Shown here one piece after another: positions 4,039 through 19,507 of a stretch of 64,000 nucleotides of DNA. The stretch lies in assembly GCA_002724245.1 (NCBI GenBank), contig PBOG01000271.1:17638-81637 (forward strand). Direction: 5' to 3'. The stretch is from Planctomycetaceae bacterium (GTDB lineage Bacteria; Planctomycetota; Planctomycetia; Pirellulales; Pirellulaceae). Each line of letters starts with the position of its first letter. Within the stretch, counting starts at the first letter, position 1. The notes below the pieces were generated by a model. It was not told the DNA's origin, did not search any database, and saw nothing but the letters and a program-made list of their open reading frames with translations. A program made the translations under genes and the position numbers.

Positions 4039-4713
4039 TTAGTCGCGTTTTTTCTTTTCTTTCTTCGAGCGTGACCGGCGTTTCCGTTTCCGTTCATAAC
4101 GAATCGTACAGCCGATCGATACCGTCTCTTTTGTTTTGGGAAGTCTACCATCCAGCGCTGCAACAACTGCGAGTTCGAGGTAATTCACCTTGGCTTTCGA
4201 TGCAGTCGGATTGTCATCCATACCGCCCATGTAGATTACCTGGCGTTTCTTGTTCAACACAAAAAACTCCGGCGTGTACCCGGCTCCGTAGTCTCTGGCA
4301 ATCTTCTGACTCGCATCAAACAGATACGGGAATGTAAACCCTTTCTTCTCGGCTCGTCGTTTCATCTCAGGGAGGCTATCCGCCGGTATCTTGTTCACGT
4401 TGACAGCCACCATACCTACGCGTTTGCCGGCTCCCGTGTGATTCCGGGCAAATGCCACCAGTCGATCTTCATAATCAACCGCGTAATCACAGCTGTTGCA
4501 CGTGAACACGATGACCAGGACATCAAATTTCTTGAAGCTGTCCAATGAATATTTTTTGCCGTCAATCCCAGGCAGAGATTTCCACTGTGGTCCGGGATCA
4601 GAGATTTTCAGTACCGGGTTATATTTGCCGGCAAGAATTGGTCCGCAGGTCAGCAGCCACATCGCGCCAACTGACAAACCGAACCCGCGAAAACTAAATT
4701 TCAGCCCAGTCAT
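4039..4713 (-). CDS. Thioredoxin-fold (TlpA/redoxin-like) protein with a polybasic C-terminal tail
   Basis: 224-aa ORF with a signal/anchor segment. It has a CNSC (CxxC) motif in VLVIVFTCNSCDYA and a redoxin-like body. The C-terminus is RKRKRRSRSKKEKKKRD. Confidence 0.75.
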   Translation of the reverse strand: MTGLKFSFRGFGLSVGAMWLLTCGPILAGKYNPVLKISDPGPQWKSLPGIDGKKYSLDSFKKFDVLVIVFTCNSCDYAVDYEDRLVAFARNHTGAGKRVGMVAVNVNKIPADSLPEMKRRAEKKGFTFPYLFDASQKIARDYGAGYTPEFFVLNKKRQVIYMGGMDDNPTASKAKVNYLELAVVAALDGRLPKTKETVSIGCTIRYERKRKRRSRSKKEKKKRD

Positions 4714-4996
4714 GCAGTTACTCCCTGTCCACCGTTAACGAATCTTCGATTTGCGGCATCCCGCTGTCCGCCTCAAAATCTCCACGCATGTCACTCACAA
4801 AAAGCCCACCAGCCCAGACGTCCCTGGCAGACGCCCACCGCCTCTGAATGCGTCGGCCTGAGAGCGCCCCTGAAACGCAGTGAGGATCTACATTGTCCCA
4901 GAACTACGGCCCAGTAAAAGGCACCTCACAGCAATGCATGACGTCACGCTGGATCCCACTCAGACCGACTGCATAATATCCCAATCGGCAGCTGAT

Positions 4997-6100
4997 TCAA
5001 TCAAAAACCACAACGGTTTTTACTCCCTGGGGCTCTCGATTCTGATAGTGCCAAAGTGACTCATCCACCGAAACCTGGCGTGTTACAAGCTGGCGAATGG
5101 CGGAACCGTATCGCGGCCGCTGTGAAACCAGATGCTCCAGTGCGCGTCCCATGTCGACCGGAGCGTTGTTTACGGTGCCCAGATAAACATGATTGCGGAG
5201 GATACCGGCGCGCATGATTTCGGCCACATTGTGCTGGCACGGTTGAGGTAATCGCGTACTGCCTTCCCACACCAGAATACCGCATGACGCCAGCGTGCCG
5301 GCTGCCTGCATCATCACAACATCGTTGCCGGTACATTCCAGAATGAGATCAAACCCATCCTCTTCGACATCCGCCAGCGCCCAGTCGTATACCCCTTCAT
5401 GTACATAGTCACAATCAAAACTGGTAACGAGTCCGGCCCGAAAACTATCCGGATCATCGCGGCCATACATCGTGACAGGCCAGCCACGCGCGCGACAGAC
5501 AATCGCAGCCGCAAACGCAATCGGACCCAAACCAGTCACCAAGACTCGCGGAGCCTGCCGCTGCCATTCATCACCGAGACGAGCATTCTGAATTTGTTCT
5601 GCTTCACGCACCGCCTTTTCCGAAACCGAAATCGGCTCAGCCAGAACCGCAGTGTCTTTGATTTCGGGCGAAACAGGGAACAAGAATTCAGGTCGATCGA
5701 TCCACGCAGGCAAGGAAAACCCATGCTCTGCGACGATGCCACGCTCAACGTAATTGCCCCACGGCACCATATCGACACGACGACGAATCTGATCAGAACT
5801 CTCGTTATCCTGTTGTCGAGGACGTCTGACTGCTGGAACAACCAGGTCTCCCGGTTCACAATCGGTGACCTCCGGCCCGACTTGCTCAACGCGTGCCAAA
5901 CATTCATGGCCCAAGACCAAAAAGCCACTGCCAACCGGACAGGCAGGTGAAGTCGACTCAAGGATATCTCGATCGGTACCACAGATACCAAGCAGCAAAG
6001 TTTTACAGCGGACTTCGCCGGGTCCAGGGGGCTCCACTGGCGGGGGTGCGATCAACTTGGGAACCGCTGCCCCAGTGAACGCGGCTACAGAACTGGTCAT
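4997..6100 (-). CDS. Zn-dependent medium-chain dehydrogenase, archaeal-type glucose 1-dehydrogenase-like
   Basis: The ORF extends to 6202, but the ATG at 6100 (MTSSVAAF...) is the likely start. The motifs GICGTDRDI and FLVLGHE match the GICGTDRE / LGHE signature of the glucose dehydrogenase branch of the MDR family. Confidence 0.75.
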   Translation of the reverse strand: MTSSVAAFTGAAVPKLIAPPPVEPPGPGEVRCKTLLLGICGTDRDILESTSPACPVGSGFLVLGHECLARVEQVGPEVTDCEPGDLVVPAVRRPRQQDNESSDQIRRRVDMVPWGNYVERGIVAEHGFSLPAWIDRPEFLFPVSPEIKDTAVLAEPISVSEKAVREAEQIQNARLGDEWQRQAPRVLVTGLGPIAFAAAIVCRARGWPVTMYGRDDPDSFRAGLVTSFDCDYVHEGVYDWALADVEEDGFDLILECTGNDVVMMQAAGTLASCGILVWEGSTRLPQPCQHNVAEIMRAGILRNHVYLGTVNNAPVDMGRALEHLVSQRPRYGSAIRQLVTRQVSVDESLWHYQNREPQGVKTVVVFD

Positions 6101-6369
6101 CACAAATATCCCTCGTAAACAAAATTTCTCGCAGCGCGAAAACGCCGTCTTGGCTTGAAACCGCATCGTAGTCAGCGCCGAGAATACGGAAAAGGGGCAC
6201 ACGCCGACGCCGCCAGGTACCCGGCCGCGATACTACCAGCGGTCAGCAGGCAGAATCTGCGCAGCCAGGTATCGGCAAACCGGTTACTCTTCCGTCCAGT
6301 CTTAGGAAATGAATGAGACCACAAACGCAATCGGAATCCGTAACTTTTCCGCATACTTGAGCGAGTCCT

Positions 6370-7356
6370 ATGATCCTGGCGGGCGATATCGGCGGCACTA
6401 ATGCGCGACTGGGCTTGTTCACATCCCGGGGAGGCGCGCTGTCGGCGGTGGCTACCCATCAATATGCAACCCAGGACTTTGAAAGCCTGGAAAAGATCGT
6501 CACTTGTTTCGTGCACACATACGGACACGAAATCAGTTGCGCCTGCTTCGGCGTAGCCGGCCCCGTCATCGCCGGTCGCAGCCAAGGAGTCAACATGGCC
6601 TGGCCTGTTGACCAGGATGCACTGGCTCAAACGCTTTCTGGTATCCCCGTCACCTTGATCAATGATCTCGTGGCAAACGCGAATGGTTTAACTCAGCTCG
6701 TCGCTCAGGATTACAGAACAATTCACGCAGGAAAAATAAATCCTCAAGGAAACATCGCAATTCTGGCAGCAGGAACCGGCTTGGGAATTGCCAGCGTCAA
6801 CCGATCAGACGGAGAAGACCGAATCTCACCGTCCGAGGGTGGACACAGCGACTTTTCACCACAAAGCGATGATGACATCGCCCTGCTACGTTTTCTGCGG
6901 AAACAGTTCAGTCACGTTAGCTGGGAACGCGTTGTTTCCGGAAGCGGCTTGTGTAACCTTTATGAATTCTTACGTACTCGAGAGCCGGATCGGGAACCGC
7001 CTTGGCTGCGTGATGCACTCGCTGAGGGAGATCGAGCCGCGTGCATCGCCAAACATGGACAAGACGGCAGCTCAGAATTGTGCCGTCTGGCACTCCTGCG
7101 ATTTGCCCACTACTACGGTTCCCTGGCGGGCAATCTAGCTCTGCAGTTGTACACGACAGGTGGCATCTGGCTCGGGGGCGGTATCCCCTCAAAATTGTCC
7201 ACCATCCTGACAGAACCGACGTTCCTCGACGCATTTCTGAGCAAGGGGCGGATTCAATATCTCTTGGAAGCTATTCCGGTTCATGTCGTATTGAACGACC
7301 GCACCGCGCTGCTGGGAGCAGCACAGTGGGCAGCAGCAAGCACGAGTGCGACTTGA
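6370..7356 (+). CDS. glk: Glucokinase
   Basis: 328-aa ORF. The N-terminal MILAGDIGGTNARLGLF is the ROK-less glucokinase ATP-binding signature. Length is typical. Confidence 0.9.
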   Translation: MILAGDIGGTNARLGLFTSRGGALSAVATHQYATQDFESLEKIVTCFVHTYGHEISCACFGVAGPVIAGRSQGVNMAWPVDQDALAQTLSGIPVTLINDLVANANGLTQLVAQDYRTIHAGKINPQGNIAILAAGTGLGIASVNRSDGEDRISPSEGGHSDFSPQSDDDIALLRFLRKQFSHVSWERVVSGSGLCNLYEFLRTREPDREPPWLRDALAEGDRAACIAKHGQDGSSELCRLALLRFAHYYGSLAGNLALQLYTTGGIWLGGGIPSKLSTILTEPTFLDAFLSKGRIQYLLEAIPVHVVLNDRTALLGAAQWAAASTSAT

Positions 7357-7402
7357 TCGGCTACTCCACAGCCAGTCTGACTTCGTAAAACTCAAGCCAG
7401 CT

Positions 7403-8251
7403 TCAGCTGCCTGCAGGTCCGCTCCAACGTTGGCCACAAGCCAACACCCTGTAGGGTTGCTTGAGGCCTTCCGCCGCAGCCACAAATTGTTCGGTGTTCA
7501 CCGTATTGAACTCGAACATTTCAAAATGACAGGGAATCACCAGCCCAGCACCAATATCGCAAGCCAGTTCTGCCGCTTCAGCGCCCCAGAGATTACCGGC
7601 AACCCGGCGTGCTGGCAGGCGTCCATTGATTGGCAGCAGTGCCACAGTGACTACCCAAGGTCGTAACTGCTCGACAAGCCCCTCGTAGAGCACCGTATCG
7701 CCGCTGTGATAGAGCGACCATTCACCGAAACGGACGACGTAGCCCAGATACGGGTAACGTCCCGCCGCATCCCGGTCCAGTTGCTCATGAGCGGCTGGAA
7801 CACCGAGAAATTCAAAACCGGCAATTTCCCGAGATTCACCAGCATCCAGTGTGGTCAATCGCGTTTCCGGACACTCTAACCGAGCAGCGGCAAACTCCCG
7901 ATTCGCAGCGGGAACCAGAACGGACATCTGTGGGTTCACCTGCATCAATGGCAACAGAGTCTCCGCATCTAAATGATCTGTGTGGTTGTGGCTGGAAGTC
8001 ACCACATCGATGAAATTTAATTGCTGCGGATCAATCACTTGTTCGGTCATGCGCACATGTGGTTTGTCGGTTTCAGCATATTTCAGTGTCAACGAATCAG
8101 ACAAATAAGGGTCCATCAGCAAATGACGCCCCTGCCACTGCAGCAGAAACCCGCTTTGCCCCAGCCACCAAAGGTGAAACCTGCGTCTGTCCAGACGCGC
8201 GGCCTCAATGTCCGCGAGCAACCGCTCACCCGATAATCGAGGAATAATCAT
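7403..8251 (-). CDS. MBL-fold metallo-hydrolase
   Basis: The ORF runs to 8467, but the homologous body starts at ATG 8251 (MIIPRLSGERL...). It carries the HNHTDHLD (HxHxDH) motif and downstream His/Asp ligands. Confidence 0.8.
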   Translation of the reverse strand: MIIPRLSGERLLADIEAARLDRRRFHLWWLGQSGFLLQWQGRHLLMDPYLSDSLTLKYAETDKPHVRMTEQVIDPQQLNFIDVVTSSHNHTDHLDAETLLPLMQVNPQMSVLVPAANREFAAARLECPETRLTTLDAGESREIAGFEFLGVPAAHEQLDRDAAGRYPYLGYVVRFGEWSLYHSGDTVLYEGLVEQLRPWVVTVALLPINGRLPARRVAGNLWGAEAAELACDIGAGLVIPCHFEMFEFNTVNTEQFVAAAEGLKQPYRVLACGQRWSGPAGS

Positions 8252-8493
8252 GAGCCATCTCCAGACGCCGTCCCGCAGTACGTCAAACGCTCTTTTTACA
8301 CAACCTGAAGACTCGAAGCTTCTATTATGGCCGCAGTCAACAGGGCCACACGACCCCCAGTAAAGACGGCTGCGAACACCAACACTTGACAGCAGAATTC
8401 GGACGGTGGATTCCCAGTCGCATCGCGTTCGATTAAGATGCCGCCCGACAACCACGCAGTCCAACATGGAAATCCACTAAGGACGCTCCACGC

Positions 8494-9696
8494 GTGCAAT
8501 ACGAGACCATAACTTCCGCAGCCGCACTCAAAGATTTCTGTGCGGCGTTACGAACAGCAAACGTCATTGCGTTCGATACCGAGTTTGTCTCGGAAGATAC
8601 TTTTCGCCCCCAACTCTGTCTAATCCAAGTCGCGATCTCCGATCGACTTGCCATCATTGATCCACTGGAAATCGAAGATGTAAGTCCTTTCTGGAAAGCC
8701 CTCACAGAAGGGCAACACATCACAGTCGCACATGCCGCCCGCGAAGAATTTCTCTTCTGCTGGAGGTCTATGGAACAGCGACCCTCGAAGCTAATGGACA
8801 CTCAAATCGCAGCTGGCTTGATTGGAATGGAATATCCAGCGTCGTACAGTGGCCTGCTGTCCAAGTTACTCGGTGTTCAACTCGCCAAAGGTGAAACTCG
8901 TACCGACTGGCGCCGCCGCCCGCTATCGTCCCGACAGCTCGACTATGCGCGTCATGATGTTCTCCATTTGCAAGACCTCGCTGATCGGCTGCAAGAACGC
9001 CTGACACAACTAGGACGCGCATCCTGGCTCACCGCGGAAATGGAAAGCTGGCAAACCCGCCTGGAGGAATTTGAACAAGGGGAACAGTGGCATCGAGTCT
9101 CCGGTTCAGCAAACCTCCGACCGCGTTCGCTGGCCATTGTCCGTGAGTTGTGGCGTTGGCGCCGCAGTGAGGCTGAACAGCGGAACCAGCCAGCCAAACG
9201 TATCTTGCGGGACGATCTGATCGTTGAACTGGCTCGCCAGCAAACCGCGGATTTACAGCGCATTCGCGCCGTCCGCGGAATGAATTTCCGTGGCGCACAA
9301 AAGCATCAAGAGGCCATCGCCCAGGCGATTCAACAGGCTCTGGACATACCAGAAAGCGAGTGTCCCAAACGCCCATCGCGGCGATCATCGCGCTCTCACC
9401 TGACGCTATTGACACAATTTCTTTCTACAGCCCTGGGGAGTATTTGCCGCCAATCACAAGTCGCCCCCAGCCTGGTCGGCAACTCGCAGGATATTCAAGA
9501 ACTAGTCAAGTTTCACTTGGATTCGAAGCGTGCCTCAGCTGACCTGCCGGCACTGGCTACGGGATGGCGAGCGGAGATTGTCGGGCAGGCTATTAACGAT
9601 TTGCTGACCGGAAAATATGCGTTACGGATCAAAGATCCACATAGTGACCATCCACTGGTCCTGGAAACTGCTTCCGGCAACACCTCCACCAGCTGA
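8494..9696 (+). CDS. rnd: Ribonuclease D (DEDD 3'-5' exonuclease plus HRDC)
   Basis: 400-aa ORF with a GTG start. It has the AFDTEFV ExoI motif, the YARHDVLHL ExoIII motif, and an HRDC-like middle region. Confidence 0.85.
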   Translation: MQYETITSAAALKDFCAALRTANVIAFDTEFVSEDTFRPQLCLIQVAISDRLAIIDPLEIEDVSPFWKALTEGQHITVAHAAREEFLFCWRSMEQRPSKLMDTQIAAGLIGMEYPASYSGLLSKLLGVQLAKGETRTDWRRRPLSSRQLDYARHDVLHLQDLADRLQERLTQLGRASWLTAEMESWQTRLEEFEQGEQWHRVSGSANLRPRSLAIVRELWRWRRSEAEQRNQPAKRILRDDLIVELARQQTADLQRIRAVRGMNFRGAQKHQEAIAQAIQQALDIPESECPKRPSRRSSRSHLTLLTQFLSTALGSICRQSQVAPSLVGNSQDIQELVKFHLDSKRASADLPALATGWRAEIVGQAINDLLTGKYALRIKDPHSDHPLVLETASGNTSTS

Positions 9697-9877
9697 GGCG
9701 ATGTCCGCCAGCTAACGCGCACAAAAGCACAGCCAGAAATCCACCGGAACGCAAGAACCTTTGACAGCGGCTTCTGCGTCACCCGCGCATGACAACACGT
9801 CGCGGGGCCAGCACGACGTCCACAGAAATCCGATCAGACGCCGACCGAAAGGGAAATTCAAATCCAACGACAATCGC

Positions 9878-10312
9878 TCACGCACGTGGCTCTTGAGCCG
9901 CCATCTGCTCCGCGATCCACGCCTCCAGTTCATCCCAATCAACAGGAGGCAATTTCGACAAGTCTGGGCGCAAACGGACAGCATCCCGGATGTAAACGTG
10001 GTCAATTTCGTCCTGTTGTTTTTCGGTATTCCAATGGACTAGAACGCGAATACAACGTTGTAACGCATTGGGGACGTCGATCTCGTTGGTACACAACAAG
10101 GGCACTTCTAGCCAACCCATTTGACGTGCAGCGAGCGCCGGAAACTCTCGATTCAAATCGTGCGTCGATGAAAATGTTGCGCTGGCAACATCCTCTTTGC
10201 GAATATCATTTCGCCGAATCATCAACGCCAACAACTGCCGCGCCGCCGCAAGAATCTCGTCACGTGAGTTCGACTCAACGGTCGTTGCTCCACGGACTCC
10301 ACGGCAAGCCAT
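9878..10312 (-). CDS. aroH: Chorismate mutase, AroH class, with a ~25-aa C-terminal extension
   Basis: 144-aa [24 protein letters not shown]...FSSTHDLN...VLVHWNT is the AroH-type signature. Confidence 0.85.
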
Positions 10313-11339
10313 AACAGATACTCACAGGAAAAGAAACGAATTCTGCAACATAGCAAGATACGACATGCACACCAGCCGGTCGAACAGCCCCCCACCTGGC
10401 ATGTTCGAGCAACATCGACGAGACAATTTGGTACGCCGCTGCACGGTATCAATAGCGCGACCGGACTACGTTTGTTCGTCTCATGTTCGCAGGTTTCATC
10501 GTAGCATTCCCGCGCGAATATGCAACGTGCTGAAAACACCCAAAACACGTCGCTCCAGCACATTAACGAGCAAAACAGACAGGAGCTCGTAGCCGGCTTC
10601 GATTCCGCGAAGCCAAGTGCAACTCCCATGGCTCTACAAGACAACCACCAAGAGCAGGATGCTTTCGCGATCCAATCAGTCTGGTCATCGGAAAGGTTTT
10701 CGGAAATCGTGCCAGACTGGTCAAGCACGATTCGACATGGACAGCAGAATGCACAAGGAGCTGACACGCCGGGACGGCCCTGGTACTGGAAATGAGCCGG
10801 CAAGATCCGCCACCGGCTGACAGTCAAACAGTTCGAGCACGATTCCGGTTCCAGGCAGGGAAATCTCCTGCTGGGGCCATGCCATGCGAAAACTCACTTC
10901 CACACCATTGACGATCGCCTGGCAGATCGGGGCGGTCGCCGCAGTGCCACAGACGTCTTTTCCTGCTCCCTGATGTAAACAGGCCTTTGTGGCGCGCCAA
11001 GCTGGCGTTTCCCTGTTACAATGCGTCTAGCGTGTCACTGTGTTGCAACGACTCTTCGAGGTTTGTCTTGCCAGCTCGTCCCAAGGCAAACCGGCGGCGC
11101 TCCGTGACAAAACACCTAACCAATTGTATATTCCTTCATGAGAAGTCCACGGATTTCTCACCCAGGCAGCCAGGCGCAAAGTGTTCTACCAGATGTCAAA
11201 TTGTGTTCAGACAGAATTGGACCAAGGTATTGACCGGCAAGGTCACCCTGTCGTGATCGCCTGGCCTGCAATCGTTTCCGTGATCTCCGCTAAAAACAAA
11301 CTTCTTCTTTTCCTTGAACCTTGACTTGAGATTACCGGC

Positions 11340-12305
11340 ATGGACGGAACCAGCCTGGATACCTCTTCGGTGCTGCTCACGGGAGCGACTGGATTCCTTG
11401 GTCGTCATTGTCTGAATGCGCTTACCCAACGCTTCGGACAAGTACACGCTGTCGCGCACCGCAAGCCAATCGTAGCTGCGGACTCCGTGATCAAACATGA
11501 GGTCAATCTACTCGACCCTGCAGCCGTCGATCATTTAATCGACCAGACACGTCCCTCGCACTTGCTACATCTCGCGTGGGTGAATGCACACAGCACGTTC
11601 TGGCATTCCGCAGAAAACCTCCGCTGGCTGGAAGCCAGCCTGCATCTCGTCCAGAAATTTACCGAATGTGGTGGCCAGCGTCTGGTCACCGCGGGAAGCT
11701 GTGCAGAGTATCGCTATGATCAGGGAACCTGCCACGAAGATCGAACCCCACTTGCTCCTGATAGTTTTTATGGACAATGCAAACAGAGTATGCAGTCTCT
11801 AATTGAATCCTATGCCAGAGAGCAACAACTCAGTTACGCGCATTCGCGTATTTTCCACCTCTATGGGCCACACGAAAATCCATTACGTTTCGTGCCCACT
11901 GTGATTCGTTCGTTACTTCACACTTCTCACAGCAAATGCTCCGACGGACACCAGATTCGTGACTATCTGTATGTCGAAGATGCCGCCGACGCGCACACTC
12001 AGCTGCTCTGTTCTGACTATCAGGGATGTGTGAACATCGGTTCTGGCTTGCCGGTCTCCTTGCGGCAGTTGGCATCCACCATTCAGTCGCTGGTTGGCCG
12101 CTCTGCGCATCTCATTGAATTTGGCCGGATCCCGCGTCGCGATAATGAACCGACGGTACTGCTGGCAGATACCCGTCGAATTTCCCGCGAAATCGGCTGG
12201 GTACCACACTGGGATCTCAATGCTGGATTGTTTCATACTATCCAGTGGTGGAAGGATCAGGAGATGCAATGTACTTCTCCTCCTCCGGCCCCAGCCGCTG
12301 CCTGA
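11340..12305 (+). CDS. NAD-dependent epimerase/dehydratase (extended SDR)
   Basis: 321-aa ORF with a VLLTGATGFLGRH Rossmann motif and a YxxxK-type centre (FYGQCK). Confidence 0.85.
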   Translation: MDGTSLDTSSVLLTGATGFLGRHCLNALTQRFGQVHAVAHRKPIVAADSVIKHEVNLLDPAAVDHLIDQTRPSHLLHLAWVNAHSTFWHSAENLRWLEASLHLVQKFTECGGQRLVTAGSCAEYRYDQGTCHEDRTPLAPDSFYGQCKQSMQSLIESYAREQQLSYAHSRIFHLYGPHENPLRFVPTVIRSLLHTSHSKCSDGHQIRDYLYVEDAADAHTQLLCSDYQGCVNIGSGLPVSLRQLASTIQSLVGRSAHLIEFGRIPRRDNEPTVLLADTRRISREIGWVPHWDLNAGLFHTIQWWKDQEMQCTSPPPAPAAA

Positions 12306-12406
12306 ATCGACGGTTCCTGTTCAGACCGGCTCACACTAGCCTGGCCTGACGGTGCGAGATTTGTTTCTGATTTGCCAATTCCGATTTGCAATAAGGCGCA
12401 GAGTGC

Positions 12407-13348
12407 ATGGAACTCGAAACCAACACTGCGGGGATTCCAATCCGCGCCCTGGGAACTACCGGAACCAAAGTGTCAATCGTTGGCTTTGGAGGCGGCCATT
12501 ACTGTCGTAAACACATCGACGAAAACACCTCGGTGCGTCTCATACAAACCGCCGTAGACCAGGGCATGACCTTTATGGACAACGCCTGGGAATATCACGA
12601 CGGGGAATCCGAGCGGCGCATGGGGATCGCGCTGGCGGGGCGACGTGACAAAGTAACGCTAATGACAAAAGTCTGTGGACGCGACCGCCAGACTGCTCAA
12701 ACACACCTGGAAGATAGTCTTCGCCGCCTAAAAACAGACGTAATCGATATCTGGCAGTTTCATGAGATCAACTACGACAACGACCCCCAATGGATATTTG
12801 AATCCGAGGGCGCGATTCGAGCGGCGGAAGCTGCGCGAGAGGCTGGCAAGGTCCGTTGGATTGGTTTTACTGGCCACAAACACCCGCAAATTCTCGCCAG
12901 AATGTTGTCCCAGGACTTTCCCTGGGACACCTGCCAGATGCCAGTCAATGTGTTAGATGCGCACTACCGCAGTTTCCAACGGGAACTACTTCCCGAATTG
13001 GCCCGGCGAGGTATCGGGGTCATCGGGATGAAAAGTCTTGGTGGCGATGCGCAACTGGTGGGTGATGTTGGCTTGACGCCACAACAGTGTCGTGGCTATG
13101 CCTTGTCTTTACCAATCAGCACACTGGTTTGTGGAATCGAGTCACTGGAAAATCTTGAGCAAGATCTATCCATTGCCCGAAATTTCCAGCCTTATACGAC
13201 CACCGAGCAGGAAGCACTCGTCCAACAGGTTCGTGACGTGGCGGGGGATGGCCGCTTTGAGTGGTTCAAGAGTACGCGTTACTACGACTCACAATTTCAC
13301 CAGCAGCAACACGGTTTCCCTGGCTTTGAAGAGGGTTTCCGGTTGTAG
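12407..13348 (+). CDS. Aldo/keto reductase
   Basis: 313-aa ORF with an AKR-like body (GFGGGH..., DNAWEYHDGESE, IDIWQFHE, GFTGHK). Its 3' end overlaps the convergent kinase gene by 83 nt. Confidence 0.9.
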   Translation: MELETNTAGIPIRALGTTGTKVSIVGFGGGHYCRKHIDENTSVRLIQTAVDQGMTFMDNAWEYHDGESERRMGIALAGRRDKVTLMTKVCGRDRQTAQTHLEDSLRRLKTDVIDIWQFHEINYDNDPQWIFESEGAIRAAEAAREAGKVRWIGFTGHKHPQILARMLSQDFPWDTCQMPVNVLDAHYRSFQRELLPELARRGIGVIGMKSLGGDAQLVGDVGLTPQQCRGYALSLPISTLVCGIESLENLEQDLSIARNFQPYTTTEQEALVQQVRDVAGDGRFEWFKSTRYYDSQFHQQQHGFPGFEEGFRL

Positions 13349-16300
13349 TCTGAAATTCACCGAGCGGGGCCCACTCAACATCGGTTCGGGTGTGCAACCG
13401 ACGAGCGATCTCAATGTAGTCCCGGCGAGGCCCGATTAACCGCGCAGCAATCTGCTCCAATGCGACCTGTTCGCGATCGTAACAGACAACAACATCGCCA
13501 TCTTGATCAGGCACACTGGTCGGTTCCTGCCCTGTGGCTCGCTGAATTTCTTCAACAAGTCGTCCATCCCCCAGGGAATCTGGAGTAATCACCAGCAGAC
13601 GCTGGGCCCCCCCCCCCTCGTCAAAGCAGGGGCGTGCTTGCTGGACAAGTTCCTGTACCACTTTGGCGCCAAGATCACTGACATCTCGCGACACGAGGTC
13701 TACGTTGAAGTTCTTGACAATCTGCAGGATCGCATGACGTGAGGATTTACGGACTTCCAATTTGAGTTGCTGACGACTCTCCATCTGACCAAGCATCAGT
13801 GAAAGCCGGCGATGTGAACTGAAAAATCTACTTGCCAGATCGCGGTCAACTTGTTCGATCAACGCTGCCTCTTCTGATCGCAATCTCTCCGACAAGTGGA
13901 CAGAACGATCCTGTTCCGACATTGGTTGACTCGGTTCACGAACCCCTGGCCGAACCGCGAACTCATCTGCAAGTTGATTCAGGTCTTTCGCCAGCTCCTG
14001 CAGACGATCCATTGCGGTATTGACCTGGGCTGAGATGCCGCGGATCAGGTCACCGACTGATTTCTCCAGCAGATGTTGCAACCGTGTTTCAGCGTACTGC
14101 TTTGCCTGATCCCGCAGTTCCGCTGCAACGATCGCAGGTCGCCTTCGAGATTGCTTCGCGAATGCATGATTCTCAAACGATTCCAACCGTTGTTCCCATG
14201 CACTCTGGTACTCGCGGGATACCTTATGGATCGCATCCAACTGTTCCACCAAGAGATGGACAACCCGCTGTGCTCCAGGCACCCGTAATTCTCTCCGGTC
14301 TACCAAACTGACAATCCATTCTGAACATATCTTTCCCAGATGGACTAACCAAGGTCGCAAAGTCGTTTCAAGTTGTTCTGCCAGGAGCCCACAGGCTGTG
14401 TCGTTCGTCAGATACTGGTGGCGCACTCCCAATGCCCGGTCAATGGCCTGTACCACTTCACGTAAATCTGTTGCCGAGGGAACATTCCCCACAGCAGGAC
14501 CCACCGTCTCGGCGATTAATTGTTCCAGATAAGATTCCTGATCCTGGTCCAGCAGACCAGCCAACAGGTCAGCGACTCGGTCCCGCAATTGGTCACCTGC
14601 GAGCCCCCATTCCTCGAGCTGGCACAGAGCCAATTGTCGACAGAGGTCGCTCTCCGCCAGGCGACGGCCTCCGGAGTGATACCTGGTTTCATCCATTTCA
14701 CTTTGGACAGAACCTCTCCAACCTCGTACTACCATGCGACAAATACGTTCCACATCGTTATCTGAAATGTACTCTCGAATATTTGTAAAACCGGCAATCC
14801 CGAGGGTTCGCAAATAGCCATCTGCCAGAGGTGCATCACTGCTGCGCGGTTCCAGAGCGCGAAATTGATCCAGAACTTCAGCGGAACCAGGGATAACAGA
14901 CCGGTAAAGGTATTCCGCCAACAAACCGGTTGCCGTGTCAAACCGGTCTTCGTTCAAGTCATCTCCTAAATGCACCATATAGGTCGACTGAAACGCCGAT
15001 GGACGGTCGTAATACGCGGGCAGGTCGCAGGCGTGGTCTCCTGGGTAGGCGCCCCCATCTACACAAAAGTGATAGAGCTCGCTCAAAGCCGCATAGGTAT
15101 TGGCAACGGCGAGATCCCGAGCTTTCGTTTGACTCGGTGTGCTATGTGAGAGAATGCCACACACACGTTCGTCCGAGAATCCCAGTTGTGCCAGCACTGT
15201 GCGTACCGCATAGGCGAGATCCGGCAACATGCCGCTCGCAGTGCCACCAGCCAGGGAGCCTACAATGAACACACGCGGACCGGAAAGCGTGCCCGTGGTG
15301 GTGGCATCCGACTCTTGATAATGGGCCATCGATGAAGCAATCGTTTTCCGCAAACTATTGAGCACCGCCGCGCTATGATCCACAAATGCCAATCGTCCAA
15401 GCGGCCTGAGACCCTCTGTCCGTAACGACCTGGGAATATTGTATAGCCAGCGCCGACTCATCCATTGGAGAAGTTGCTGGGATTGTGAGCGATAGTCTTT
15501 ACTGGGGCGAAGTGGCATGGCCAATGTCTGGCTGTCGTGAAGCGTGGTTGAACTTTCACCACGCGTCGCGTCCGCTAACGCGCTGATGTCGGTATCAAGG
15601 AGCAGCATTTGAATTTGGCCCGACACTTGTGGCTCACCAAATCGATCACTCAATCGCTGCTGCAAATGGCGGAACGTGCGCGCGGCTGTCCCACCCACTC
15701 CCAGAAAAATGGTCGGACACAATTGCGGCGGCTGTACCACTGCTTTCAAAGCGGGTAATGATGCGACTTGATGCGAAACGCGTACTAGTGTTTCGGTCCG
15801 TTTGACAGAACGCGGCTTCTGCGATTCGATCGACGCCGTCTCACACATCTGCAAGCTGCCAGCAGCACGGTTTTGGATAACAGCCCGCCGCGGCGGCCGT
15901 CCTGTGCGCACGTCCGCATGCGACAAGTTCTCGACAAGAGAACGACAATTTGGGAATCGCCTCTCCGGATTCTTGCTCAATGCACGACCAATGATGGCCT
16001 GATCGCTACGTGACAACCTGGAAAGGTCGGGGCGCCGGTGAAGATGTTGAACCGCCAGTTGTGCTGCAGTCTGCCCCTCAAAAGGTAAATGCCCGGTCAG
16101 CATCTGCTGGAAGACAATCGCCAGGCTGTACTGGTCACTATACCGATTTGGCTGATCATCAAAGACTTCAGGCGGAGCATAGTTGGGAGTCAAACCCGCC
16201 GCATTCGAGACTTCGGCCTCACGCAGGTTCTTGATCAGCCCAAAATCGGCAACCTTCACACGACCTCCGAGGAGTAGCAAATTGGCCGGTTTGATATCCA

Positions 16301-16748
16301 GATGCTGCAATCCATGGTGCTGAAAAATGTAATCCAAACCGTCCGCCGCATCGCGCAAATAAACCAGCAACTCGTCACGTGGTATACCGATTTTGTCTTG
16401 CCGAAGACATGCTTCAAAACGATCTTCAAGACTACCGTCGGCCAATTCCGTGACAATAACCAGACAATCACGAATGACTTCAATCCGCTCCAATGAAAGC
16501 AGAAAAGGATGATGGGCATCCTTGATACGGTTCAGCGCCTTTAATTCCCGGGCAGCTCGCGCATCATCATGACGCCCAAGCACAATCTTGATTGCTTTCT
16601 CCAGCCCTCCCGGAGCTTCTGCTTTCCAGACATCACCAAATCCACCGGAACCAATTCTCTCCAGAATCCTATATCCTGGAATCGGCTCCAATAGATCAAG
16701 TTTAGGGTTCGAGAGAACTTCGGTTTCCATGCCTGCCACCAGAATCAA
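13266..16748 (-). CDS. Hanks-type Ser/Thr protein kinase fused to a tubulin/FtsZ-like (Tubulin_2-type) domain and a long alpha-helical C-terminal region
   Basis: 1160-aa ORF. The start is TTG 16748, overlapping the upstream stop, or ATG 16730. Kinase core, aa ~25-275 (nt 15924-16676): GSGGFGDVWKA, AIK, HLDIKPANLLL, DFG, APPE. Tubulin-like region, aa ~344-660 (nt 14769-15719): IFLGVGGTAAR (G-box 1-like) and VFIVGSLAGGTASGMLPDLAYAVR (tubulin signature GGTxSG, nt 15231-15248). The remaining ~500 aa are helical and charged. Confidence 0.85.
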   Translation of the reverse strand: MILVAGMETEVLSNPKLDLLEPIPGYRILERIGSGGFGDVWKAEAPGGLEKAIKIVLGRHDDARAARELKALNRIKDAHHPFLLSLERIEVIRDCLVIVTELADGSLEDRFEACLRQDKIGIPRDELLVYLRDAADGLDYIFQHHGLQHLDIKPANLLLLGGRVKVADFGLIKNLREAEVSNAAGLTPNYAPPEVFDDQPNRYSDQYSLAIVFQQMLTGHLPFEGQTAAQLAVQHLHRRPDLSRLSRSDQAIIGRALSKNPERRFPNCRSLVENLSHADVRTGRPPRRAVIQNRAAGSLQMCETASIESQKPRSVKRTETLVRVSHQVASLPALKAVVQPPQLCPTIFLGVGGTAARTFRHLQQRLSDRFGEPQVSGQIQMLLLDTDISALADATRGESSTTLHDSQTLAMPLRPSKDYRSQSQQLLQWMSRRWLYNIPRSLRTEGLRPLGRLAFVDHSAAVLNSLRKTIASSMAHYQESDATTTGTLSGPRVFIVGSLAGGTASGMLPDLAYAVRTVLAQLGFSDERVCGILSHSTPSQTKARDLAVANTYAALSELYHFCVDGGAYPGDHACDLPAYYDRPSAFQSTYMVHLGDDLNEDRFDTATGLLAEYLYRSVIPGSAEVLDQFRALEPRSSDAPLADGYLRTLGIAGFTNIREYISDNDVERICRMVVRGWRGSVQSEMDETRYHSGGRRLAESDLCRQLALCQLEEWGLAGDQLRDRVADLLAGLLDQDQESYLEQLIAETVGPAVGNVPSATDLREVVQAIDRALGVRHQYLTNDTACGLLAEQLETTLRPWLVHLGKICSEWIVSLVDRRELRVPGAQRVVHLLVEQLDAIHKVSREYQSAWEQRLESFENHAFAKQSRRRPAIVAAELRDQAKQYAETRLQHLLEKSVGDLIRGISAQVNTAMDRLQELAKDLNQLADEFAVRPGVREPSQPMSEQDRSVHLSERLRSEEAALIEQVDRDLASRFFSSHRRLSLMLGQMESRQQLKLEVRKSSRHAILQIVKNFNVDLVSRDVSDLGAKVVQELVQQARPCFDEGGGAQRLLVITPDSLGDGRLVEEIQRATGQEPTSVPDQDGDVVVCYDREQVALEQIAARLIGPRRDYIEIARRLHTRTDVEWAPLGEFQTTTGNPLQSQGNRVAAGEIVSRSNAYS
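13607..13617. repeat. C11 (G11 on the coding strand) homopolymer tract inside the kinase-tubulin-like CDS
   Basis: Counted directly: gctggg-ccccccccccc-tcg. On the minus strand it reads GAG GGG GGG GGG GCC (E-G-G-G-A, aa ~1044-1048). The other runs I spotted are 7 nt or shorter, but this was by eye, not a systematic scan. Confidence 0.95.
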
Positions 16749-18130
16749 GCGGACTCGCCTAGAACCATCGCAAAGTAGCTCGCTACAACGCGATCAAAAT
16801 ATTCAGGCTTCATTGAAAATTCAACATCGCGGTACGTACACATATTCCGAACTTGAGACAACAAATCGCGCGGATGACAGCGTCTCAACGCGCGTCCTAC
16901 CGTGCGGTAATGACACTCCAATAGATCCTCAACCACATCGGCACGATAATCACACCCGAAGTGGTAACAGCAAAGCTGAAACAAATGATGAAATTCTTCT
17001 TCAGATGGATCACCTACTTCGATCTTGTAGGGAATACGACGCAAGAACGCTTCATCAACCAGTTCGCAAGGCTCCAGATTCGTCGAAAAGATAATTAACT
17101 GCTCAAAGGGAACCTGAACCTTCTTACCACTAGGTAATGCCAAAAAATCATGACGGTTTTCAAGCGGGATAATCCAACGATTCAGCAAGTCCGCGGGAGC
17201 CACACGCTGACGACCAAAATCGTCTATCAACAAGCACCCACAATTACTCTTGAGCTGTAGCGGGGCTTCACAAATGTTACTGCGTGTATCGTGGCGAATT
17301 TCAAGGTTGTCGAGCGTCAATTCACCTCCGACCACGACCGTCGGGCGTTTGATTCTTATCCATCTGCGATCATGTGACTGAGCGTTCAATAACCCTTCCG
17401 AACTCGTATCCACCATGTGATGGTAAGAAGGGTCATAGAGCTTGATGACCTGGTCCCCATCGATGATGGTGCTTGGAATCCAGATCTGCTGACCAAAACA
17501 ATCGGTAATTCTCCGGGCAAGCGTCGACTTTCCATTTCCCGGCGCACCGTACAAAAACATCCCAGCGCCGGAGTTCACCGCTGGACCCAATAAGTCGAAA
17601 AGATCTTCGGACACTGAAATGTCAGCCACTGCGGCCTCCAGGTCCTGGCGACGCGGCGCCTCTGCACTAATCGACTGGGCGTCAACCGAAATCACATAGT
17701 CCATCAAGGGGACTGGTGCCGGTCCTACATAGGCACAGGTGTCCATGGCAACCCGGGCCTGGGCCGCCCCTTTTTCCGTCAGGCCATAGTAATAATCGTT
17801 GAACGGCGCCGGCCCAGCGTGTACCAGCACCTGGCGTGTACGCAGGCTACTCAGTACTTCCTCCAGCATACCAAACGGCAAACAGAGGTTATCGGCAACG
17901 TTTCGACCGCTCAAAGTCCCATGGATCAGAACGTTTTTACAGATCAACGATTCGATGAAAGAGACCGGAATCCCTGCCTCCTCAACGGTCTGGGGTGCGG
18001 TTGGCCAGAATGCATCATCGGACAGAATCGTTGCCAACAGGCCCAATTCAACTTCTGGAAAATGTGTTGTCAGCATGCCAGGTATCCAGGCGTGATTGGA
18101 AAGAGTGTTCCAGTTTCCAAATTTCCCCAA
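16745..18130 (-). CDS. AAA+ ATPase with a ~185-aa family-specific N-terminal domain
   Basis: 461-aa ORF, starting at TTG 18130 or ATG 18076. Walker A is GAPGNGKST (nt 17522-17548). Walker B is LLIDDFG (nt 17219-17233). It also has a LNRWIIPLE...IIFSTNLEP sensor-like segment and FLRRIPYKIEVGDP. The stop overlaps the kinase gene start. Confidence 0.85.
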   Translation of the reverse strand: MGKFGNWNTLSNHAWIPGMLTTHFPEVELGLLATILSDDAFWPTAPQTVEEAGIPVSFIESLICKNVLIHGTLSGRNVADNLCLPFGMLEEVLSSLRTRQVLVHAGPAPFNDYYYGLTEKGAAQARVAMDTCAYVGPAPVPLMDYVISVDAQSISAEAPRRQDLEAAVADISVSEDLFDLLGPAVNSGAGMFLYGAPGNGKSTLARRITDCFGQQIWIPSTIIDGDQVIKLYDPSYHHMVDTSSEGLLNAQSHDRRWIRIKRPTVVVGGELTLDNLEIRHDTRSNICEAPLQLKSNCGCLLIDDFGRQRVAPADLLNRWIIPLENRHDFLALPSGKKVQVPFEQLIIFSTNLEPCELVDEAFLRRIPYKIEVGDPSEEEFHHLFQLCCYHFGCDYRADVVEDLLECHYRTVGRALRRCHPRDLLSQVRNMCTYRDVEFSMKPEYFDRVVASYFAMVLGESA

Positions 18131-18280
18131 ACAAACTTTAGGTTACTTTTTGGACACCTCGACCTATTCGCCCTGAACGCCAAAACCATTCAACCTGAAT
18201 AACCCGCGTTACCGCACCTTCTTCGTTGCTCGTTCTATTTGTGGCGTAGAGTTTTTCGAGACACTGTTGGCGGACCTGTC

Positions 18281-19507
18281 ATGACCCGCTCTCAGTTCCA
18301 CGCTAATCGCGTTTCACATTTCCAGGAAAGTACTGTGACGACTGCATTTCATCCTGAAAGCATCTCCGGCAAGCAGGGGAACGCTGCGTGGTTTCTGTCA
18401 GGATCACTTGGTCCGGGGGGTGCCGTCACAGATGTCCCCGTCAATTCGACACCGTTCGTCGTAGGACGCAAAACGAACTGTTCACTTTGCCTGGCTGCAC
18501 CGACGGTATCTGGCCAGCACGCAACGATCAGTATGCAGGGTGAACGGCTGTTGATTACAGATCTGGCAAGCACCAATGGAACCTACGTCAACGGCCACCG
18601 TATCAAACAACCTACAATCCTTAACGACAAAGACCTGATTCAATTAGCGGATGCCCCTTTTCGTGTCCGTGCCCAAGTCACTCAAACCGACACACAAACC
18701 CAGCCTGAGAATGCATACAACGACGCGTTAGCGCTTGTGGAATTTGACCGTTTAATGAGCGCACGACTTGTCGCGCCGCGCTACCAGCCCATCCTCGACC
18801 TGAGCCTTCAGGAAACCTCTCCGACTTCACAGACACCAGCATCCCATTGCCCGCAACACATCGTTGGTTATGAAGTCCTGGGAAGGAGCGATTTACCTGG
18901 CCTGGAAACTCCTGCTGCAATGTTTCAGGCCGCCGGCCGCCTGGACTTGCAAGTGCCGCTCAGTCGGATGCTACGCTGTGAAGGTGTACAGGCGACACGG
19001 ACCGTGACCCCACTGCCCCGCCTGTTTATCAACACTCATCCGTCCGAATTAGACGAAGCAGGGCTGATCGAATCTTTGCAGGATCTGCGCAGGCTGGCGC
19101 CTGCACAAGAACTTGTACTCGAAATTCATGAATCTGCCGTCACGGACCTGTCTGCAATGCACCGTTTGGCTACGGTTCTCCGTGACCTCAATATGGGACT
19201 GGCATTCGATGATTTCGGAGCGGGCCAAACAAGACTGGTTGAATTGATCGAAGTACGACCCGATTACGTGAAATTTGACATGAGTCTGATCCGCGACATC
19301 GACACCGCGCATCACGAACGGCAACAAGTCCTGAGGCAGCTGGTCATTATGGTGCAAGAATTGGGTAGCACACCTCTGGCTGAAGGAATCGAACGCTCTG
19401 GAGAACTGGAAACTTGCCGACAGCTTGGGTTTACACTGGGGCAAGGTTATTTTCTGGGTTCCCCACAATCTCTGGAAAACATTGCTTGCCCCAGTGGTGC
19501 CGGATAA
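18281..19507 (+). CDS. FHA domain - EAL domain protein (putative phosphothreonine-regulated c-di-GMP phosphodiesterase)
   Basis: The ORF starts at TTG 18239, but ATG 18281 is the likely start. FHA domain (nt ~18386-18667): VGRK, SGQHA and TNGTYVNG conserved residues. EAL domain (nt ~18731-19462): YQPI, GYEVLGR (EVL variant of EAL), FINTHP, EIHE, DDFGAG, KFD, EGIE, QGY. All catalytic or metal-binding positions appear present. Confidence 0.85.
   Translation: MTRSQFHANRVSHFQESTVTTAFHPESISGKQGNAAWFLSGSLGPGGAVTDVPVNSTPFVVGRKTNCSLCLAAPTVSGQHATISMQGERLLITDLASTNGTYVNGHRIKQPTILNDKDLIQLADAPFRVRAQVTQTDTQTQPENAYNDALALVEFDRLMSARLVAPRYQPILDLSLQETSPTSQTPASHCPQHIVGYEVLGRSDLPGLETPAAMFQAAGRLDLQVPLSRMLRCEGVQATRTVTPLPRLFINTHPSELDEAGLIESLQDLRRLAPAQELVLEIHESAVTDLSAMHRLATVLRDLNMGLAFDDFGAGQTRLVELIEVRPDYVKFDMSLIRDIDTAHHERQQVLRQLVIMVQELGSTPLAEGIERSGELETCRQLGFTLGQGYFLGSPQSLENIACPSGAG

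Follow-up and report, generated by a model that had tools for sequence, protein, structure and literature searches.

A Pirellulales gene trio encoding a wHTH–AAA+ ATPase, a kinase–FtsZl1 fusion and an FHA–EAL protein as a probable signalling module

Background

Do the genes encoding an AAA+ ATPase, a Ser/Thr protein kinase fused to a tubulin-like domain and a divergently transcribed protein with FHA and EAL domains constitute one functional unit when they are found side by side in a planctomycete genome? This question is raised by a locus in a stretch of 64,000 nucleotides (nt) from Planctomycetaceae bacterium (GenBank assembly GCA_002724245.1, contig PBOG01000271.1, positions 17,638 to 81,637), which is referred to as the window throughout. 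An initial annotation of the window had assigned three open reading frames (ORFs) to this locus, all of which were confirmed at their coordinates, and had proposed that the output of the kinase is read by the FHA–EAL protein, thereby coupling a tubulin-like assembly to the turnover of cyclic di-GMP (c-di-GMP). To our knowledge, the Planctomycetia divide without FtsZ, and we know of no organisers of their budding and polarity. The tubulin-like domain of the fusion protein belongs to the FtsZl1 family, which represents the most divergent branch of the tubulin superfamily.

The FtsZl1 family was defined in 2010 by Makarova and Koonin (PMC2875224), who described four planctomycete members with an N-terminal kinase domain. 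The supplement to that study lists Psta_0486/0487 and the Blastopirellula pair, and its context table records as the neighbour of FtsZl1 an FHA-phosphodiesterase in Pirellula staleyi and an FHA protein in Blastopirellula marina; the connection to c-di-GMP was pointed out by a reviewer. The kinase–FtsZl1 fusion was mentioned again in a paper from 2023, and a paper from 2024 reported tubulin-like domains as the commonest partner among the domains exclusive to cytoplasmic planctomycete kinases. With the fusion published three times and the adjacency of the FHA–EAL gene already present in the 2010 supplement, the novelty that the initial annotation ascribed to this gene combination was overstated. 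Other FtsZl1-type tubulins were placed in predicted conflict systems by Kaur et al. in 2020 (PMC7159879).

Conservation of the gene trio in Pirellulales

A sequence profile of the ATPase was searched against one genome per species, covering 185,579 species, and matched at least 596 stretches, the best 80 loci of which all belonged to Planctomycetota. A neighbour-joining (NJ) tree of the ATPase loci separated a clade A, comprising 47 loci, from a clade B. The genera represented in clade A are Pirellula, Blastopirellula, Rhodopirellula, Rubripirellula, Stieleria, Mariniblastus, Bythopirellula, Aureliella and Laterigemmans, and the clade additionally includes members of the Lacipirellulaceae and Thermoguttaceae. 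A gene encoding a kinase–Tubulin_2 protein was detected in 37 of the 47 clade A loci and in 33 of the 36 loci whose sequence extends 4 kb or more downstream; in 31 of the loci this gene immediately follows the ATPase gene on the same strand. The FHA–EAL gene was likewise detected in 37 clade A loci, corresponding to approximately 90% of the informative ones. Reciprocal look-ups starting from the kinase and from the FHA–EAL proteins recovered the same trio. The flanking regions, by contrast, differ between the genomes, and no gene family outside the module was found in more than seven of the 47 loci. Since the trio stays together across Pirellulales while its flanks vary, it is probably one signalling unit. 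These data support the view that the trio behaves as one evolutionary unit with synteny kept across the order, and they bear out the earlier proposal that the three genes belong together: with high confidence, they form one functional module.

The arrangement of the trio is subject to several variations. The FHA–EAL gene is most commonly located divergently upstream of the ATPase gene, as in the window, but it is co-directional and upstream in the loci L014, L024, L026 and L027, and in L020, L043 and L084 its place is downstream of the kinase gene. In L029, the kinase gene is shifted to the far side of the FHA–EAL gene. Locus L084 (positions 4592-10605) carries on one strand the genes for the ATPase, a stand-alone kinase of 311 amino acids (aa), a stand-alone Tubulin_2 protein of 839 aa and the FHA–EAL protein, which reflects a natural split of the fusion or, possibly, a frameshift. 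Genes encoding a ParE toxin and a SLFN/AlbA_2 protein are located immediately upstream in L084. Loci of the Rhodopirellula type have kept the ATPase and the kinase–tubulin gene, with the FHA–EAL gene located elsewhere or absent. In L017, an opposite-strand gene for a GAF–sigma-54 activator follows the ATPase gene.

The clade B ATPase is a paralogue with approximately 50% identity and is encoded by the loci L047-L083 (e.g. L063:8001-9269 and L056:8001-9266). Its hosts include Singulisphaera (S. acidiphila NC_019892, corresponding to L063), Schlesneria and Phycisphaerae, but also genera of the Pirellulales, so that clade B is spread across Planctomycetota, including Isosphaerales, Planctomycetales and Phycisphaerae. 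The N-terminus of the clade B proteins is a long low-complexity extension with a conserved L-x-R-[IV]-x-x-L-x-G helix, which replaces the short Thr-rich tail of the clade A proteins.

Two types of the module

The module occurs in two types that differ in the apparent state of their c-di-GMP-related domains. Type 1, represented by the window and 31 loci, is characterized by a catalytically intact EAL domain and the absence of a GGDEF gene. Type 2 was found in the loci L007 (9400-15702), L013, L023, L036, L045, L046, L081, L085 and L086, where the EAL domain is degenerate, the residues R, N, D, D, E and E having been lost, and the FHA residues are intact. Eight of these nine loci contain an adjoining gene for a REC-GGDEF-CBS protein; in L045, an ORF of the GGDEF cluster is also present, though it was missed in a later screen. 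The signature of the type 2 GGDEF domain is G-[SAG]-[DG]-R-F in place of GG[DE]EF, and both the EAL and the GGDEF domain of type 2 look like pseudo-enzymes or receptors. The catalytic residues of the kinase and the phosphothreonine (pThr)-binding residues of the FHA domain are invariant in both types. Judged from these motifs, the ATPase, the kinase–FtsZl1 protein and a functional-looking FHA domain are common to both types, and c-di-GMP hydrolysis is a predicted property of type 1.

Both types are present on the 7.8-Mb contig_207, which bears the type 2 locus L085 (492355-509771) and the type 1 locus L087 (4577226-4592338). The presence of both paralogous modules on one contig indicates that the trio was duplicated and kept as a unit; the claim of co-duplication rests solely on the co-existence of the two modules in this one genome. 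In NJ trees, the type 2 FHA–EAL proteins were monophyletic, the kinase–tubulin proteins formed a star-like tree and the type 2 ATPases represented a basal grade. Congruent phylogenies of the module types are not claimed, as these trees are insufficiently resolved. In the type 2 locus L086, and in this locus only, a gene encoding an HSP70/MreB-like protein of 523 aa (11520-13091) is located approximately 1 kb downstream of the module, which recalls the theme of tubulin and HSP70 described by Kaur et al. (2020).

Domain architecture of the deduced proteins

The features of the module and the domains of the deduced proteins are compiled in Table 1.

Table 1. Features of the three-gene locus in the window. 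Positions refer to the 64,000-nt stretch.
Feature	Position	Strand	Basis
Ser/Thr kinase–FtsZl1 (tubulin-like) fusion gene	13266..16730	-	ORF, translation, Pfam Pkinase and Tubulin_2
Small C-terminal alpha/beta domain	13398..13604	-	ORF residues ~1049-1117; AlphaFold fragment 719-787
Long alpha-helical (coiled-coil-like) stalk	13635..14672	-	ORF residues ~693-1038; AlphaFold fragment helices 363-708
FtsZ/tubulin-like GTP-binding domain, FtsZl1/Tubulin_2 family (predicted)	14709..15713	-	Pfam, AlphaFold, Foldseek
Hanks-type protein kinase domain	15954..16673	-	ORF residues 26-265; Pfam Pkinase, E 3.7e-33
ATPase/kinase junction	16731..16748	-	TTGA stop/start overlap, or 14-nt spacer before ATG 16730
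wHTH–AAA+ ATPase gene	16745..18076	-	443 aa from ATG 18076; clade A, outside every Pfam model
AAA+ core and lid	16748..17629	-	Alignment A1 invariant columns; Msp1 and spastin alignments
N-terminal winged-helix-like domain of the ATPase	17738..17989	-	Residues ~30-113; AlphaFold pLDDT 64-86
Divergent intergenic region between ATPase and FHA–EAL genes	18077..18280	.	Presumed shared promoter region
FHA–EAL gene	18281..19507	+	408 aa from ATG 18281; Pfam FHA and EAL

The Hanks-type kinase domain of the fusion protein was recognized by the Pfam model Pkinase with a score of 115.5 bits (cut-off 31.7). Its catalytic residues, comprising the G-loop, the VAIK lysine, the alphaC glutamate, the H-L-D motif, the asparagine, DFG and APE, show no or almost no variation among 111 orthologues, and the H-L-D sequence of the catalytic loop classifies the kinase as non-RD throughout the family. 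According to these residues, the domain looks functional, i.e. like an active Hanks kinase. The fusion protein is cytoplasmic, with neither PASTA domains nor a transmembrane sensor.

The tubulin-like part follows the kinase domain and was matched by the Pfam model Tubulin_2 (PF13809) at residues 347-592 with an E-value of 1.1e-36 (127.3 bits; cut-off 27). Both Pkinase and Tubulin_2 were found in nearly all of 120 homologues among the matches listed, and the canonical Pfam Tubulin model (PF00091) also matched one orthologue. The AlphaFold model of residues 331-1160, for which 45 orthologues were used, reached a mean predicted local distance difference test score (pLDDT) of 82.8 and a predicted template modelling score (pTM) of 0.77. 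In a Foldseek comparison with the PDB, the best 50 matches were all CetZ, FtsZ, tubulin, gamma-tubulin or TubZ. The matched members of the superfamily include CetZ, archaeal and bacterial FtsZ, alpha-, beta- and gamma-tubulin and the phage TubZ; the E-values started at 6e-5 (up to 1e-3 for the top matches) over 320-380 aligned columns (about 320-360 for the top matches), with TM-scores normalized to the target of 0.38-0.53 (0.47-0.52 for the top matches). On the basis of this model, the domain is assigned to the FtsZ/tubulin fold. The tubulin/FtsZ-type domain that had been deduced from motifs in the initial annotation was thus recovered by profile and structure searches alike, and the kinase core by the profile search.

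Two glycine-rich nucleotide-binding loops, for which the tubulin signature is GGGTGSG, could be located in the tubulin-like domain. A T1-like loop, GVGGTA, is encoded at positions 15684-15701 (orthologue consensus G-[IV]-G-G-T-A), and a T4-like loop at positions 15231-15248 reads GGTASG in the window (family consensus S-x-x-G-G-T-G-S-G; both consensus sequences from 111 orthologues). The sequence GGTGSG is present in 105 of the 111 orthologues, and the alanine of the window is found in the remaining 6. GTP binding by the predicted domain is plausible.

Downstream of the tubulin-like domain, the AlphaFold model shows a helical stalk of approximately 350 aa, which agrees with the FtsZl1 architecture of PMC2875224, as does the overall order of an alpha/beta domain (fragment residues 16-350), the helices and a second alpha/beta domain. 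The helical character of the C-terminal part, which had been extended over about 500 aa, therefore applies to the stalk; the remainder includes the small alpha/beta domain. The latter was modelled with pLDDT values of about 85-90, belongs to no known family and contains the residues P726, C759, R787, R791, D793 and W796 that are kept among the orthologues.

In the FHA–EAL protein, the FHA domain extends over ORF residues 74-136 (18458-18646; Pfam E-value 6.6e-20, 71.8 bits, cut-off 20.7) and the EAL domain over residues 202-409 (18842-19465; E-value 2.5e-36). The pThr-binding residues of the FHA domain (G-R, S-x-x-H and N-G) are strongly conserved: each of R, S, H and N occurs in 120-121 of the 121 sequences aligned and in all 40 locus-encoded copies, including those of type 2. 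The window protein contains the EAL motifs EVLGR, N, EIHE, DDFGAG, KFD, EGIE and GQG in intact form. The corresponding motifs ExLxR, N, ExxE, DDFG, KxD, EGxE and GQG show at most slight variation in the 121 sequences and none in the 31 type 1 loci, in line with the previous statement that the FHA domain is intact and the catalytic motifs are retained. The EAL domain of the window accordingly looks like a functional, catalytically intact c-di-GMP phosphodiesterase, as far as can be predicted from its residues. A weak NCBIfam match of the FHA domain to FhaB/FipA (57 bits; cut-off 125) reflects the common FHA fold.

The ATPase displays the features by which the AAA+ superfamily is recognized, namely a Walker A motif (GAPGNGKST, residues 177-185, 17522-17548), a Walker B motif (LLIDDFG, centred on D285-D286), a sensor-1-like polar residue and an arginine-containing second region of homology (SRH) with the sequence DEAFLRRIP. 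Approximately 100 aa separate the Walker A from the Walker B motif. The invariant columns of alignment A1 (GxPGNGKST, DDFG, STN and AFLRR(I)P) align with the corresponding motifs of Msp1/ATAD1 and spastin. The pattern seen by eye was RPxVVVGGELT...LLIDDFG...LLNRWI.PLE...FST N.EP. The protein passed no family cut-off of Pfam or NCBIfam, and the Pfam result was the same for all 28 orthologues. The best Pfam matches remained sub-threshold and were confined to the P-loop, namely those to AAA_16 (21.9 versus 32.6), AAA (15.4 versus 21.2), Mg_chelatase (14 versus 20.3) and AAA_5 (16 versus 22). The best sequence matches in the PDB were weak, namely those to the classic AAA+ proteins Msp1/ATAD1, spastin, VCP and Rpt, with E-values of 1e-4 to 1e-3. 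A classification of the ATPase by Pfam, NCBIfam or PADLOC was rejected because all matches were sub-threshold or local, and a function resembling microtubule severing, suggested by the top match to spastin, was dropped as marginal and driven by the P-loop. A likeness to the helix-2-insert AAA+ proteins ChlI, MoxR and ComM that was perceived by eye is not claimed, as no tool result supported it.

The N-terminal 85 residues or so of the ATPase are modelled, with moderate support, as a winged helix-turn-helix (wHTH) domain. Foldseek matched this region to MarR-family proteins and to AspA with root-mean-square deviations of 1.8-1.9 Å over 72 columns and E-values of 2e-3 to 2e-2, and a profile match of the N-terminal domain to AspA, a centromere-binding protein, had an E-value of 0.013. 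The ATPase is the slowest-evolving member of the trio, its homologues being 63-67% identical across many metagenome-assembled genomes (MAGs), and its family is large, comprising 1146 clusters at E-values up to 1e-30 among 1.84 billion representative proteins. Distant relatives with long N-terminal extensions carry FHA (P0457, P0459), HDOD (P0405) or PAS (P0519) domains. Such fusions constitute "Rosetta-stone" evidence that would make the ATPase family an output or component of phosphothreonine and related signalling.

The clade A ATPases begin with an acidic N-terminal tail of the consensus M-x-x-T-[ED]-T-[QL]-[ED]-[ILV]-E (N-termini of P0001-P0120). The threonine content of the tail amounts to 18%, compared with 4.5% elsewhere in the protein. 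A preference for pT-x-x-[ILV] is common to many FHA domains. The Thr-rich tail resembles this FHA-binding motif or a phospho-acceptor motif and may be regarded as a lead to a candidate docking site. In the window, the tail (18041-18076, minus strand) reads MLTTHFPEVELG, with two threonines kept.

Comparison with known systems

The kinase–FtsZl1 protein shares with the FtsZl1 family of PMC2875224 the N-terminal FtsZ/tubulin-like GTP-binding domain, the extended coiled-coil or helical region and a C-terminal part, which is helical in that family. The typical FtsZl1 operons, for which a role in membrane remodelling is a prediction only (PMC2875224), differ from the module in that they contain genes for vWA-domain proteins, separate kinases, a divergent P-loop GTPase and OmpA-like proteins; the partners identified here are instead the wHTH–AAA+ ATPase and the FHA–EAL protein. 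In the systems of Kaur et al. (PMC7159879), too, a conserved neighbourhood brings together NTPases, genes for signalling or effector functions and a tubulin-superfamily protein whose tail is helical or a coiled coil. The hosts of those systems are Firmicutes and Actinobacteria, and their components comprise GAP1-N2 GTPases, FNIII repeats, vWA proteins and HSP70. None of these is a conserved neighbour of the planctomycete module; moreover, the module is order-wide and apparently lineage-inherited rather than patchy. The module is thus an FtsZl1 system with a different, well-conserved set of partners and not a categorically new one. A literature search that omitted most subscription journals yielded no paper describing the ATPase as a partner, the conservation of the trio across the order, its division into type 1 and type 2 or the duplication of the module. 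The planctomycete kinase–FtsZl1 protein can now be placed in a module that is kept across the order and further comprises a highly conserved, unclassified AAA+ ATPase and a predicted FHA–EAL phosphodiesterase; a paralogous, putative pseudo-enzyme version of this module also exists. A lone curiosity has thereby become a defined three-gene target with testable links, namely those from the kinase via pThr to the FHA domain, the Thr-rich tail of the ATPase and the activity of the EAL domain.

Pairs of Hanks kinases and FHA proteins are represented, for instance, by the mycobacterial PknB with FhaA, FhaB/FipA and GarA. The module resembles these pairs in that a Ser/Thr kinase gene is linked to one whose FHA product has its pThr-binding residues intact; it differs in the fusion of the FHA to an EAL domain and of the kinase to a tubulin-like domain, and in the absence of PASTA domains and a transmembrane sensor. 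No characterized FHA–EAL protein was found in the literature search. With the AAA+ proteins of the classic clade (spastin/katanin, Vps4, Msp1/ATAD1 and Cdc48), the ATPase shares a layout in which the recognition domain is N-terminal and the AAA+ motor comes after it. The sequence similarity is marginal and local, however, and the ATPase is distinguished by its wHTH domain and by the additional insert of about 100 aa that separates the two Walker motifs; spastin ranks high through P-loop similarity alone, and no specific relationship to microtubule severing was shown. In the type III plasmid partition systems TubZ/TubR(/TubY), TubR is a small DNA-binding adaptor without an ATPase, and TubZ has a recognizable T7 loop and polymerizes. 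The likeness to these systems consists of a gene for a tubulin-superfamily GTPase adjoining that of a winged-helix protein, and TubZ is among the Foldseek matches; the module, in contrast, is chromosomal and order-wide, and no centromere-like repeats were seen in the region.

Proposed mechanism and alternative explanations

The deduced properties of the three proteins can be combined into a model of a type 1 module. The FtsZl1 domain and the stalk would self-associate, possibly in a GTP-dependent manner, and would thereby cluster the non-RD kinase domains, which may then phosphorylate threonines in trans. Candidate targets are located in the Ser/Thr-rich linker of the kinase itself and/or in the Thr-rich tail at the N-terminus of the ATPase. 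The FHA domain of the FHA–EAL protein would dock on the resulting phosphothreonines, so that the EAL domain might be recruited or activated and the local c-di-GMP lowered. The AAA+ ATPase, made together with the kinase, could disassemble and reset the assembly or could itself be the regulated output. The model is favoured by the recurrence of the c-di-GMP theme, the type 2 modules having gained the REC-GGDEF-CBS gene. As to the physiological output, a cell-cycle or pole-linked decision between the motile and the sessile state is a guess, and the most natural one since the Pirellulales are usually described as dimorphic bacteria that multiply by budding. Should the links of the model hold, the module would provide an example of Ser/Thr phospho-signalling wired to c-di-GMP turnover by an FHA–EAL fusion as well as the first functional handle on FtsZl1, with relevance to planctomycete cell biology and to both c-di-GMP and Ser/Thr signalling. 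We assign a probability of roughly 55% to this reading as a whole, i.e. to the window carrying a type 1 copy of a Pirellulales three-gene signalling module with wiring of pThr to FHA.

Several observations weigh against this reading. The clade A loci L005 and L017 contain the ATPase gene without its partners, and no FHA–EAL gene was found within 8 kb in L018 and L038. The clade B ATPase is an orphan without any conserved neighbour among its loci and functions without the trio partners; its genomic context consequently offers no functional clue. The degenerate EAL and GGDEF domains of type 2 imply that c-di-GMP hydrolysis is not universal to the module, so that the link to c-di-GMP turnover drawn in the initial annotation applies to type 1, including the window with its intact EAL domain, and fails for type 2. 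In the tubulin-like part, neither a GTPase-activating T7 loop nor the canonical C-terminal domain was identified, and family alignments revealed no invariant acidic residue past the S6/H7 region; Makarova and Koonin (PMC2875224) similarly could not align T6-H7 in FtsZl1. An hmmsearch of the PDB sequences with a profile of the tubulin-like region returned no FtsZ or tubulin at E-values up to 10, for which reason the T7 loop could not be located. Polymerization and GTP hydrolysis are uncertain on these grounds. The AlphaFold model of the ATPase, computed with 28 close orthologues, had a mean pLDDT of 47 with an unusable core below 50, and because of this poor model the clade within AAA+ was not resolved. 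The tail MLTTHFPEVELG lacks the best-conserved threonine at position -7, which makes the tail motif a lead and not a result. Finally, the literature search, which omitted most subscription journals, found no experimental work on FtsZl1 proteins or the module, and no functional data on RB10367, Psta_0486/7 or in the essentiality tables of P. limnophila were found in papers and supplements.

A rather unlikely alternative is a transcriptional circuit, in which the wHTH–AAA+ ATPase acts as a DNA-binding regulator of the divergent promoter of the FHA–EAL gene and/or its own operon, with the kinase–FtsZl1 protein as a sensor or modulator. The similarity of the N-terminal domain to the winged-helix DNA-binding proteins of the MarR family and AspA would fit this explanation, as would the predominance of divergent transcription from the partner gene and the fusion of ATPase relatives to the sensory or signalling domains FHA, HDOD and PAS. 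The wHTH matches are weak, however, and in AAA+ proteins such domains frequently serve as interfaces to other proteins. Moreover, in several lineages the FHA–EAL gene has become co-directional or is located downstream of the kinase gene with the linkage kept, the clade B paralogue has the same N-terminal domain without a conserved divergent neighbour, and the 204-nt spacer of the window showed no conserved repeat or operator-like element. It also appears improbable that only the ATPase and the kinase–FtsZl1 protein form a functional pair encoded by an operon, the FHA–EAL gene being a chance or co-regulated neighbour whose product reads other kinases. Dozens of Ser/Thr kinases are available for such reading in planctomycetes, the FHA–EAL gene is variable in position and orientation and missing in L018 and L038 where the pair persists, and the EAL domain has decayed in type 2. 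Despite all rearrangements, though, this gene is found in about 90% of the informative loci and was co-duplicated with those of the ATPase and the kinase–FtsZl1 protein; in L023, which lacks the kinase, an FHA gene and a GGDEF-like gene still accompany the ATPase gene. Moreover, the pThr-binding residues of the FHA domain are invariant even where the EAL domain decays, as would be expected if the conserved function were the docking of FHA inside the module.

An anti-phage or conflict system comparable to those of Kaur et al. (2020), with the kinase and the AAA+ protein as a sensor or threshold device and the EAL protein as the effector, is highly improbable. FtsZl1-type tubulins with coiled-coil tails do occur alongside vWA and GTPase genes in predicted conflict systems, an HSP70-like gene is located near one type 2 locus, the kinase domain matches the PADLOC models mad6 and PD-T4-6, and part of the ATPase matches IetA (E-value 4e-8 over about 50 residues). 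These PADLOC matches proved to be generic for kinase domains or local to the P-loop and SRH, with no full-length match to a component; the NCBIfam scores were far below the cut-offs (78 versus 460 bits for MADS6, 28 versus 510 bits for IteA), and the FHA–EAL protein had no defence match in PADLOC or NCBIfam at all. Genes for vWA-domain proteins, GAP1-type GTPases or toxic effectors were not conserved neighbours in the 47 clade A loci. Defence islands are usually patchy and fast-evolving; the module, by contrast, is order-wide, located among housekeeping genes and strongly conserved, as is evident from the ATPase identities. A more far-reaching version of the signalling model is that the kinase-bearing FtsZl1 protein forms a GTP-dependent cytoskeletal polymer in the FtsZ-less Pirellulales that, with the AAA+ protein as a remodeller and a pThr-gated phosphodiesterase, would serve as a machine at the pole or bud neck for budding division or the transition from swarmer to sessile cells. 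This version would, if true, fill a gap in the apparatus by which planctomycetes divide and establish polarity, but we consider it improbable, and a direct role of the module in division is speculative and improbable to the same degree.

Gene starts, intergenic regions and neighbouring genes

The kinase–FtsZl1 protein comprises 1154 aa when translated from the ATG at 16730 or 1160 aa from the TTG at 16748, the stop codon being located at 13266-13268, and a database protein of 1154 aa with 99% identity exists. The ATPase ORF at its full extent covers 16745-18130 on the minus strand and 461 aa. As homologues are 440-446 aa in length, the ATG at 18076 is the most likely start; the Walker-type AAA+ assignment of the initial annotation is retained, and its length of 461 aa is to be corrected to a likely 443 aa. 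The FHA–EAL ORF extends at most over 18239-19507 on the plus strand, and the ATG at 18281 is its most likely start codon because a protein of 408 aa with 100% identity is present in the database. With these two ATG starts the divergent spacer measures approximately 204 nt, which replaces the earlier figure of 108-150 nt; the distance shrinks to 108 nt only if TTG starts are assumed for both genes. This spacer yielded no sigma-70-like promoter, Rfam family or notable repeat, and scans of the region for promoters, terminators, Rfam families and repeats detected nothing exceeding the background.

The overlap at the ATPase/kinase junction, as described in the initial annotation along with the alternative ATG that leaves 14 nt, is present in the sequence: the stop codon TGA of the ATPase gene (16747-16745) overlaps the TTG at 16748-16746. 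In the orthologous loci the two genes are co-directional, and the gaps between the tblastn hits range from 23 to 344 nt in 31 loci. Judging from this arrangement, the gene pair is probably co-translated.

Neither additional paralogues of the module genes nor a GGDEF gene were found within the 64-kb window, whose flanks encode an aldo-keto reductase, an epimerase, an SDR protein, a CN-hydrolase and an ABC permease according to Pfam. Identical or nearly identical module proteins are present in MAGs from Tara, ENA and NCBI that are labelled Planctomycetaceae or Pirellulales, and the window is from a marine planctomycete MAG lineage. The proteins are named "AAA family ATPase", "hypothetical protein" or "tubulin-like domain-containing protein", and "diguanylate phosphodiesterase" at NCBI. 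The final 100 residues or so of the aldo-keto reductase ORF (12407-13348, plus strand) lie outside the Pfam domain Aldo_ket_red, and no frameshifted continuation was detected in the other frame. This ORF and the kinase–tubulin ORF are convergent and share 83 nt at their 3' ends (13266-13348).

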